DNA of 4,179 bases from a virus (IMGVR_UViG_2671181019_000011); one strand, 5' to 3'. Positions 2,325 through 3,648 are shown, numbered from the stretch's first letter. Translations and numbers: made by a program. The notes: generated by a model from the sequence alone, not told the origin.

Positions 2325-2516
2325 TTATCCTTTGGGTTCTATGCCGCGCCGCTTTAGTTCAGTGCGCCCCAACTCTTTAAGCCAGTTGGCTAGGCTTATG
2401 CCGTCGCTCTGTGCTTCTTTGTCGAATTGCTCTTTTAGCTCTGGAGAAATTCGCATTCTGAATTGTGGGGATTGCCCGTCCCCTTTAGGGCTTTTATCGC
2501 GTTTGATTGTTGACAA
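2325..2516 (-). CDS. Ribbon-helix-helix (Arc/CopG/Mnt-like) DNA-binding protein (63 aa, TTG start)
   Basis: QFRMRISPELKEQFDKEAQSDGISLANWLKELG matches the RHH beta-strand plus two-helix pattern (compare Arc QFNLRWPREVLDLVRKVAEENGRSVNSEIYQRV). TTG start at 2516 preceded by AGGTGA with 4-nt spacing; TAA at 2325-2327. Confidence 0.65.
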   Translation of the reverse strand: MSTIKRDKSPKGDGQSPQFRMRISPELKEQFDKEAQSDGISLANWLKELGRTELKRRGIEPKG

Positions 2517-2577: not shown

Positions 2578-2621
2578 AAAAAAGCAAAGCCCCGCAAGTG
2601 TCATTACCACTCGCAGGGCTT
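2578..2621 (-). terminator. Hairpin with minus-strand U-tract (possible insulating terminator); same hairpin lies in the plus-strand leader of the Icd-like gene
   Basis: Stem AAGCCCCGC (2587-2595) / GCAGGGCTT (2613-2621), 8 of 9 pairs. On the minus strand it is followed by TGCTTTTTT (complement of A6 at 2578-2583). Confidence 0.3.
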
Positions 2622-2650
2622 CTAACCAACAACGTAAACTAGGAGCCGTT

Positions 2651-3211
2651 ATGGTTGCCGTAAATCATATACCACACCTTGTACACACACAAACGGCCTT
2701 TGTGTGGCGTTTTCTGGCCCTGAATATCGGAGAAAAAAACCAGTTGATCGCCAGTGTCGAAAATAGCTATGATTCCCGCGCACCTCATAAAACGGGTGCC
2801 GGGATTGGCGTCCTGGGCAAAACTGAAGCGCATAACACGCGCCCCGCGTGTTTTTTTGTGCCGCATAGTCACACCTTATCAATGGTGGGCTGTACGGGGG
2901 CGGAGCAATCCGCGCCGGTTTCTTCAGTGTCCGGTTACGCCAACCCTGCACAGTCCGCCACCAGCGAAATTGGCGTTTCCGGTGGCGGTTATCTTAACCA
3001 CACTGAGGAGGCTGCCAACATGGCTACTATCCCTACCCTTGTACATTCTCAAACCGCCTTTCTCTGGCGCTTTATCATCTTTGGCGCGTCAGAACATCAA
3101 ATCATCCACGTAACCGCCTGGACGGAACGCGAAGCGCGTAGCCGTTGCCCGTCCGGTTGTGTTGCTGTATTCGCCGCCCGTATTCGTCAGGAGGTGTGCC
3201 ATGTGCAATAA
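2651..3211 (+). CDS. Tandem Icd-like (host cell division inhibitor Icd-like) ORF: two Icd-like modules in one frame (186 aa as sequenced); the first module may be frameshifted
   Basis: AGGAG at 2641-2645, ATG 2651, TAA 3209-3211. N-terminal motif IPHLVHTQTAFVWRF repeats as IPTLVHSQTAFLWRF at residue 124. The modules are joined by a Gly/Ser/Ala-rich low-complexity stretch that coincides with GC-rich RNA hairpins. Icd-like assignment is from remembered family motifs, not a search. Confidence 0.45.
   Translation: MVAVNHIPHLVHTQTAFVWRFLALNIGEKNQLIASVENSYDSRAPHKTGAGIGVLGKTEAHNTRPACFFVPHSHTLSMVGCTGAEQSAPVSSVSGYANPAQSATSEIGVSGGGYLNHTEEAANMATIPTLVHSQTAFLWRFIIFGASEHQIIHVTAWTEREARSRCPSGCVAVFAARIRQEVCHVQ
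2897..3011 (+). promoter_or_regulatory. Structured RNA region upstream of the second Icd-like start: two hairpins plus anti-SD pairing (candidate C4/CI-like antisense RNA or translational control element)
   Basis: Hairpin 1: 2898-2904 / 2909-2916 with GCAA tetraloop. Hairpin 2: CCGCCACC 2955-2962 / GGTGGCGG 2981-2988. Long-range pairing 2921-2930 (UCUUCAGUGU) with 3000-3009 (ACACUGAGGA) sequesters part of the SD (AGGAGG 3006-3011). Confidence 0.3.
3020..3211 (+). CDS. Icd-like protein, second module, expressed from an internal start (63 aa)
   Basis: Strong SD AGGAGG at 3006-3011 with 8-nt spacing to ATG 3020. Product MATIPTLVHSQTAFLWRF...TEREARSRCPSGCVAVFAARIRQEVCHVQ has the size and motifs of a small Icd-like protein. 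Confidence 0.55.
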   Translation: MATIPTLVHSQTAFLWRFIIFGASEHQIIHVTAWTEREARSRCPSGCVAVFAARIRQEVCHVQ

Positions 3212-3422
3212 AACCACACCGGACGCAGCAGCCGCCGCGCTCACTACGCTGATGCACGCGCTTATCGATATTGAATGCACTGCAGAGCTTGCGCAGGGAG
3301 AAGAACAGAAAGACCGGACACAGTTCGCCCTGGAATGTATCCGATACATCGCAACGCGGTCGCTGAATGACGCTAAAAATATTCTTGTTGCTGATTGTGA
3401 AAATGGGGGGGGTTATGCGTGA
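3201..3422 (+). CDS. Hypothetical small acidic protein (73 aa)
   Basis: AGGAGG at 3189-3194, 6-nt spacer, ATG 3201; overlaps the Icd-like stop by 11 nt. TGA at 3420-3422. An Ala-rich segment; no family recognised. Confidence 0.6.
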   Translation: MCNKTTPDAAAAALTTLMHALIDIECTAELAQGEEQKDRTQFALECIRYIATRSLNDAKNILVADCENGGGYA

Positions 3423-3648
3423 TGATCGTTTTAATTCCCTGAAACAAGAATTTTCCGGCGTTCCTGATGATGCGGCTGATGCGCTTTCGTCAATGCCAGA
3501 ACTTATTAGAGCGGCTTTTTTCTTACTTTCCACGAGAGAATATAAATCAACGGGGCTTGATGTACTGAATATCGCCGCCGATTATGCGGAATATGTGGCA
3601 GAGGCGCGTTATAGAAGAAAATTTCCTGAGGATGTAAGCCATGCGTGA
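3415..3648 (+). CDS. Hypothetical protein (77 aa)
   Basis: ATG 3415 overlaps the upstream stop within ATGCGTGA; a G8 tract (3405-3412) serves as SD. TGA at 3646-3648. No family recognised. Confidence 0.55.
   Translation: MRDDRFNSLKQEFSGVPDDAADALSSMPELIRAAFFLLSTREYKSTGLDVLNIAADYAEYVAEARYRRKFPEDVSHA

Follow-up and report, generated by a model that had tools for sequence, protein, structure and literature searches.

Within 4,179 nucleotides (nt) of viral DNA (IMGVR_UViG_2671181019_000011; the whole stretch is called the window here), positions 2651-3211 raise the question of why two Icd-like starts should stand in tandem. A sequence-only reading had suggested that the interval is a duplicated regulatory-toxic module, in which each of two genes for Icd-like, division-inhibiting proteins is preceded by a hairpin and a CUUCU-type element complementary to a Shine-Dalgarno (SD) sequence. 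Our analysis points elsewhere: the interval is probably one P4-type satellite immunity locus with nested genes in the style of eta/kil, and not two toxin modules. The observations that carry this reading are the order and spacing of two RNA genes, the complementarity of C4 RNA to sites flanking its gene, the identity of the second module, the truncation of the first, and the conservation of the reading frame that spans them.

Two starts in one frame

The frame, the two copies of the repeat and the gene at the 3' end are placed as follows.

2651-3211, plus strand: eta-like long frame, 186 codons from ATG 2651 (SD AGGAG, 2641-2645)
2668-2713, plus strand: repeat copy 1, codons 7-21 (IPHLVHTQTAFVWRF) of a shortened Icd-lineage N-terminus
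3028-3073, plus strand: repeat copy 2, inside the complete icd gene 3020-3211
3020-3211, plus strand: Icd/Kil-family gene, complete with 63 codons and nested as the 3' part of the long frame

What the sequence-only reading said of the two starts themselves was accurate. Each has its own SD and ATG (AGGAG at 2641-2645 with ATG 2651, and GAGGAGG at 3005-3011 with ATG 3020), the DNA identity put at about 75% comes to 31 of 40 positions (77.5%) between 2677-2716 and 3037-3076, and the peptide motif IPxLVHxQTAFxWRF is common to both, as IPHLVHTQTAFVWRF in copy 1 and IPTLVHSQTAFLWRF in copy 2. A repeat search of the window delimited 46 nt with 76% identity (2668-2713 versus 3028-3073), and because the 360 nt between the copies equal 120 codons, both lie in the same frame. 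The likeness exceeds that of shuffled sequences for DNA (local-alignment score 40 versus 17.2 +/- 2.2, maximum 27, in 300 shuffles) as for peptide (80 versus 21.9 +/- 4.2, maximum 42, in 1000 shuffles). The two "modules" are, however, the two ends of a single uninterrupted frame (2552/2651-3211) and not separate open reading frames (ORFs): the frame runs through copy 1, an internal promoter, both RNA genes and icd/kil.

The similarity is also short. It is limited to about 45 nt (copy-1 codons 7-21) and falls to random level on either side, the SD regions included; alignment of the copies in the window found no extension of the repeat into the SD regions or past codon 21. Between the copies, seven of the 15 core codons are identical, five differ synonymously and three non-synonymously, after which similarity collapses. 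This pattern marks the copies as old, separately evolving Icd lineages, and we conclude from it that they would be the N-termini of two long-diverged lineages, both apparently under protein-level selection, and that recombination, not a recent tandem duplication in situ, would have set them around the RNA cassette. In relatives, the window-type copy 1 has only about four polymorphic sites, which are common to an allele lacking C4 that is described below.

The profile search that the sequence-only reading had proposed separates the modules. Module 2 (3020-3211) scores 57.1 bits on the NCBIfam model NF033153 phage_ICD_like (cutoff 25), is 40% identical to Icd of a P1-like phage (E 1e-9) and aligns with P4 Kil; on these matches it is a true Icd/Kil gene. 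The 70-amino-acid (aa) translation of module 1 (2651-2860) gave no Icd profile match even at E<=1. Its Icd-like part ends near codon 29 (…LALNIGE, ~2737), where the promoter and the two RNA genes follow, and it lacks the conserved C-terminal CPSGCVAVFAARIRQ part of Icd. An intact icd in the C4-less locus L005 and in about 44 IMG/VR loci begins with this SD and these 29 codons, and by this homology to the Icd N-terminus, module 1 consists of the ribosome-binding site and some 29 codons from a second Icd lineage that has diverged. The Icd-like nature claimed for both modules thus holds for module 2 and, in module 1, for those ~29 codons and not for a complete module. Nor does the window hold two complete C4-icd modules: it has one C4 gene, and copy 1 is shortened and fails the Icd profile, which disposes of the duplicated regulatory-toxic module.

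The RNA cassette and its targets

Between the two copies lies a cassette with the following features, all on the plus strand; for the Rfam models the gathering threshold (GA) is given.

2744-2773, plus strand: predicted sigma70-like promoter, TTGATC-18-TATGAT, ending 7 nt before the start of the isrK model
2780-2856, plus strand: IsrK / P4 SeqA-like leader RNA (Rfam RF01394, 66 bits, GA 50)
2802-2811 (a1) and ~2820-2827 (b1), plus strand: upstream C4 target sites in the leader
2834-2856, plus strand: intrinsic terminator closing the isrK element, from a terminator scan
2878-2965, plus strand: C4 / P4 CI-type antisense RNA gene (Rfam RF01695, 73.8 bits, GA 45, E 1e-13)
2970-2982 (a2, TTGGCGTTTCCGG) and 3000-3009 (b2, ACACTGAGGA), plus strand: downstream C4 targets, inverted repeats I4 and I6

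The -35 of the internal promoter is encoded by conserved 'NQLIA' codons, which form the left border of the common cassette; the promoter would be the counterpart of P4 PLE and of constitutive type. The isrK element scores above gathering, has a terminator at its end and lies upstream of C4, the same arrangement as in P4; a c4-a1b1 Rfam match overlapping it reaches 21 bits, below GA. In C4, the b' loop, which is that of hairpin 2, is UUUCUUCAGUGU (2919-2930), and the a' strand, unpaired and toward the 3' end, is ACGCCAACCC (2937-2946). The RNA folds with a minimum free energy of -42.2 kcal/mol (z -3.8) into a structure that is the three-helix structure of the Rfam model. Across 24 distinct sequences, 98% of the alignment cells at paired positions are paired, compensatory changes occur in 12 pairs, and covariation scores 0.381 compared with <=0.085 for slid partners, in an alignment fitted to the model.

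The long ORF has a sole Pfam match, Phage_ASH (PF10554; 61 bits against a threshold of 26), at aa 40-133. These residues correspond to nt 2768-3049, that is, to the promoter, isrK, C4 and the icd SD. Since the match falls on the RNA genes, conservation of this "family" seems largely to reflect conservation of RNA genes.

C4 and its flanking sites are complementary as inverted repeats I4-I6. The best duplex of the b' loop in the whole window is at 2996-3011 (-15.3 kcal/mol), over the icd SD GAGGAGG at 3005-3011, and the second best is at 2814-2829 in the leader (-11.8 kcal/mol); the a' strand pairs best at 2797-2812 (-16.6 kcal/mol) and again at 2970-2982. The locus thereby has the layout that is a1/b1 - c4 - a2/b2 in P1 and seqA - CI - seqC in P4 (PMC4825925). 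We rejected C4 control of module 1: at the copy-1 initiation region the duplex energy is -4.5 kcal/mol, equal to background (mean -4.4), so that module 1 would be without C4 or anti-SD control of its own. The hairpin with a CUUCU-type anti-SD that had been assigned to each module is thus present for module 2, as the CUUCA-containing b' loop of C4, and absent for module 1, where the hairpin is a terminator on the minus strand (see below).

The P4 genome has the same construction. In NC_001609, the minus-strand ORF 8168-8812 is eta (199 codons from its MMM starts) and ends as kil (65 codons), with an isrK-like element at 8692-8615 and C4 at 8507-8420 inside. As there, the long ORF of the window starts before the internal promoter, encloses the counterparts of seqA and CI, and has kil in frame; against P4 Eta/Kil it shows 32% identity over 111 aa (E 4e-7). 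Between the last C4 position and the icd/kil ATG lie 54 nt in the window (2965-3020), P4 and the P1-like phage alike (L004 8365-8420, L003 1688-1743), although the sequences are about 70% identical.

By analogy with P4 eta/kil and P1 c4-icd, the locus could work as follows. Transcripts from the internal promoter would be processed into a stable C4 RNA of about 80 nt, which would pair with the leader sites and the icd SD, blocking icd translation and causing premature termination; C4 would thereby silence icd and the replication genes downstream. When transcription comes from upstream, ribosomes would start at ATG 2651, out of the reach of C4, and translate across the cassette, and this upstream translation would keep transcription going (no Rho-dependent termination) and give a long Icd-containing protein. 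The 46-nt repeat would then be the homologous N-terminal codons of two Icd lineages, recombined to either side of the RNA cassette.

The frame in relatives and competing readings

Relatives were 80 IMG/VR loci retrieved by the downstream Icd protein only (four-protein alignment), in which C4 was located with a covariance model; a single-sequence nhmmer search gave fewer copies and was replaced. C4 was found in 38 loci, which include the window and earlier loci, and it precedes the icd ATG by 142 nt in every one. Upstream of icd, the frame in its phase runs without a stop for 246-1500 nt at each of the 38, against 15-276 nt for the other two frames, and in 18 distinct 240-nt cassettes the three frames hold 0 (icd phase), 19 and 89 stops. 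There are at least four types of upstream junction, all in frame at the 'NQLIA' codons, and the segment upstream of them varies: one is the window type, two have longer or shorter Icd-like remnants, and one has almost none. The architecture of the long frame recurs in 880 database proteins.

Other relatives lack the cassette. In the Shigella flexneri locus L005, neither C4 nor isrK was found; there is a single intact icd, MVAVNHIPHLVHTQTAFVWRFLALSAGE joined to SQIIHVTAW…, with the head of copy 1 and the body of copy 2. Its flanks are nearly identical to window positions 2615-2723 and 3098-3500, and exactly 360 bp are missing. Of the 80 IMG/VR loci, about 44 carry this C4-less single-icd allele. 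Among complete E. coli genomes it shows up as matches in two pieces over ~228 bp, O157:H7 strains included, and the window-type arrangement is present in 149 of 5,426; E. coli 97-3250 (NZ_CP027599) is 99.8% identical to the window across 2615-3211. At L050 a copy-1-type head is joined to a copy-2-type body at another codon, which makes a second junction position. We conclude that in-register recombination between the copies would explain the C4-less allele.

Upstream of the long frame are three further features.

2510-2561: operator-like direct repeat TTGACAAGTGGTCACCT / TTGTTAGGTGGTCACCT with palindrome GGTCACC (repeat family D2)
2578-2622, minus strand: intrinsic terminator, a perfect 15-bp stem (2586-2622) plus U-run
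2692->2664, minus strand: candidate promoter TTGTGT-17-TATGAT, its -35 under the scan threshold

The first of these has a perfect -35 (TTGACA, 2510-2515), faces a divergent ribbon-helix-helix (RHH) ORF (2325-2516, minus strand), and is a candidate for a regulated upstream promoter of the long frame. Relatives carry other palindromes at the operator position, which suggests exchangeable repressor-operator modules. The second is the hairpin taken earlier for the anti-SD element of module 1. We rejected that role: the minus-strand fold of the hairpin (2586-2622) is far more stable (-27.6 kcal/mol, z -5.9, against -16.3 kcal/mol for the plus strand), and the U-run is there; on the plus strand the stem contains A.C mismatches and a U tail is missing. 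It is kept, with differing stems, in 23 distinct variants, one compensatory change among them; this conservation, with the U-run, identifies it as a minus-strand terminator. A minus-strand Rfam match to 'rnk_pseudo' (26 bits, GA 55) was discarded, being just this terminator.

A conserved terminator at 2622->2578 requires some minus-strand transcript, and this one is found some 20 nt ahead of the copy-1 SD. Our hypothesis, from the position of the candidate promoter, is that promoter and terminator would together give an antisense RNA of about 80 nt over the copy-1 SD and ATG; the candidate RNA matches no Rfam family. One could go further and suppose that the Icd repeats are in-frame recombination borders at which the 360-bp cassette is recurrently lost or swapped, switching the Icd/Kil and replication operon between C4 immunity and a second layer of control, namely an upstream repressor-operator plus this ~80-nt cis-antisense RNA, transcribed from a promoter in copy-1 codons 5-14, ending at 2622->2578 and masking the copy-1 SD/ATG. 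We offer this wider model as speculation, more likely wrong than right by some way.

Several points weigh against a single P4-type locus with an eta-like frame. The 38 C4-bearing loci are related and their counts not independent, and the open frame could be partly frozen by conservation at the RNA level. There is a natural exception to the eta-like fusion: in E. albertii (L006, 2759-3189), icd has isrK and C4 before it, and the open Ash frame of 483 nt is in another phase than icd. The P1-like phage is without a long upstream frame (195 nt only), and RefSeq annotation (PGAP) calls the upstream pieces pseudogenes. The 360-bp difference between alleles may be a deletion or an insertion, its direction being unproven. 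The upstream promoter, with a perfect -35 and a weak -10, is not confidently placed, and between it and ATG 2651 stands a strong hairpin, one that has no U tail on the plus strand.

The pseudogene calls, the out-of-phase E. albertii frame and the P1-like phage also speak for a rival, in which copy 1 is a dead recombination relic, translation of the long ORF does not occur, the frame being open by chance of RNA conservation alone, and the working locus consists of promoter, IsrK, C4 and icd only, as in P1. In the same direction point the Pfam match, which sits on the RNA genes, the radical amino-acid changes over the C4 hairpins, which go with compensatory RNA changes, and the highly variable length of the upstream N-terminal segment. 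We nevertheless judge this rival unlikely. The SD and ATG of copy 1 (2641-2653) are identical to those of the intact icd in the C4-less allele; the frame is open and in phase at 38 of 38 loci, reaching far past the RNA genes; several junction types are all in frame, and the icd phase alone is free of stops. In addition, the P4 eta frame is translated and needed for read-through, according to the summary in PMC10111431 of Forti et al. (1999).

The duplicated module with which the question began, two complete regulatory-toxic Icd modules that each have a hairpin and anti-SD and inhibit division, has in its favour the two strong starts and the common motif, the RefSeq name 'Icd-like protein (x2)' given to relatives, and loci in which two complete tandem C4-icd cassettes with orthogonal pairing do exist. 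In about 10 relatives (L034, 1359-2146, and L019, L023, L029, L030, L033, L037, L041, L042 and L050), a second, divergent C4-like RNA (48-54 bits) lies about 150 nt past the icd stop, with a further Icd-like gene (MAVSARPYFVWRFMQC…) nested in a long frame of its own that starts at the icd stop. Both C4 RNAs of L034 pair better with their own target than with the other (-25.1 versus -9.1 and -22.0 versus -10.9), and the two are predicted to be mutually orthogonal. The earlier idea is thus realised elsewhere in the family, but not in the window: here copy 1 lacks an Icd profile match and the CPSGCVAVFAARIRQ part, giving way to RNA genes after ~29 codons; the single C4 is unable to pair with its start; its hairpin is the minus-strand terminator; and the similarity covers 45 nt only, with unrepeated flanks and synonymous divergence. 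We regard two complete modules in this window as very improbable. A different pairing of domains was seen in an E. ruysiae island (L007, 2125-3159), where neither C4 nor isrK was found and a single frame joins two different Icd-like domains (MAGTQHTQTHPKFIYTF… then …FIWRFIALSTAQPRVIHIEATSEQEARQQ…); the same island has an int-alpA RNA (RF02996) at 78-146.

That the repeat is an RNA-level element (duplicated C4 targets or an attenuator) and not homologous coding sequence is barely credible, although C4 systems do have duplicated targets flanking the RNA gene and the terminator scan reported a copy-1 hairpin (2686-2706 plus GCGTTTTCTG): the real C4 targets are elsewhere (2797-2829 and 2970-3011), with the two repeat copies C4 pairs at energies close to background (-9.6 and -8.7), the hairpin was rejected as an attenuator at z -0.12 against dinucleotide shuffles and has no equivalent in copy 2, and the differences between copies are enriched for synonymous changes in a sequence that also heads intact Icd genes. 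The stem codons of the copy-1 hairpin are invariant in relatives, in a very small sample.

Island context and known systems

The window covers the left portion of a phage-satellite island, from the integrase through an AlpA-like regulator and a variable zone to small ORFs and a DUF4222 gene. In RefSeq relatives, icd is followed by a hypothetical protein, then DUF4222 and a RepA-family helicase.

1-1242: P4-type integrase
1739-1945: AlpA-like regulator
3201-3422, plus strand: first ORF 3' of icd, 73 aa, without family match

The ATG of the ORF at 3201-3422 overlaps the icd stop (ATGTGCAATAA) and its SD (AGGAGGTG) lies within the 3' end of icd. Because of that overlap the ORF is probably translationally coupled to icd, and probably a member of the C4-controlled operon that leads toward the replication genes.

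Two small ORFs lie on the minus strand between alpA and the long frame: that at 2325-2516 has weak RHH similarity (HicB, Arc, RelB, MobA; E 5e-4 to 0.2), and a second, at 2094-2282, has 62 aa. A 221-codon ORF on the plus strand (1960-2625) is antisense to both, and the true coding strand is ambiguous. At L001 (2092-3390) and similar loci, the counterpart of the 221-codon ORF is fused in frame with the eta-like frame; in L001 the fused open frame has 432 codons, from just past alpA to the icd stop.

The main value of identifying the locus lies in annotation. The labels 'Icd-like protein (x2)' and 'ash family protein' stand on thousands of satellite islands in enterobacteria, and recent satellite surveys list 'ash' as a protein-coding derepressor gene (PMC13612085). 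At this locus the 'ash' and Icd labels would cover an RNA immunity switch (IsrK/SeqA plus C4/CI) within an eta/kil-type frame, and recognising the switch names a controller for the replication genes of the island and accounts for the open frame. Many islands, some of them in O157:H7, are without the RNA cassette through an in-register join and must control icd otherwise. Tandem orthogonal C4-icd cassettes may interest those who study the specificity of immunity between satellites, or between satellite and helper.

Among known systems, the immunity region of P4 is closest. It has the same order and nesting (long frame, internal promoter, isrK/SeqA, C4/CI, SD target, kil/icd) in the same island context (integrase, AlpA/Vis-type regulator, immunity region, replication genes). 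As summarised in PMC10111431 from Forti et al. (1999), the P4 transcript from a promoter inside eta is terminated via CI/seqA and processed into CI; Kil is a truncated product, full-length Eta is translated only from the upstream promoter, and Eta translation prevents termination. The differences lie at the edges: P4 Eta is without a Kil-like N-terminus, whereas in the window a second Icd lineage supplies the beginning of the long frame; P4 eta abuts vis, whereas the window has about 700 bp between alpA and the frame start, which hold the divergent RHH gene, the operator-like repeats and the minus-strand terminator; and the replication gene is a RepA-family helicase in relatives of the window and alpha in P4.

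The immI locus of P1 and P7 shares with the window the Rfam family of C4, targets on both sides of the RNA gene with the downstream one over the icd SD, a homologous Icd (40% identity), and the spacing from C4 to ATG. It differs in that the P1-like locus has only a short in-phase upstream frame in place of the long one, and in that icd is followed by the antirepressor gene ant in P1 but by small ORFs of no known function and replication genes in the window. IsrK and SeqA are equivalent (PMC4825925), and the IsrK-orf45-anrP region of Salmonella Gifsy-1 likewise has an isrK-family leader with an intrinsic terminator and a processed C4-like RNA downstream (PMC4825925). There, the gene downstream of the RNAs encodes an antirepressor, against icd/kil in the window, and a short IsrK activates translation of the antirepressor mRNA in trans, a role that is not inferable for the window.

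The 'Bro zone' of phage-inducible chromosomal islands (PICIs), as presented in portions of Mageeney et al. (2023; PMC10111431), has the same layout of int, alpA, dynamic zone and replication genes, and C4 and isrK matches lie inside a Phage_ASH-type ORF of the dynamic zone, as in the window. CI and seqA homologues inside eta-like genes of Gram-negative PICIs are already noted in those portions, which contain no description of an Icd-type N-terminal repeat, of a C4-less in-register allele or of tandem orthogonal cassettes. Since the arrangement is already known from satellite phage P4, the locus is fairly ordinary; what may be new, in a modest way, is its Icd-type head, the in-register polymorphism for presence or absence of the RNA cassette, and an antisense RNA that may exist at the upstream start.

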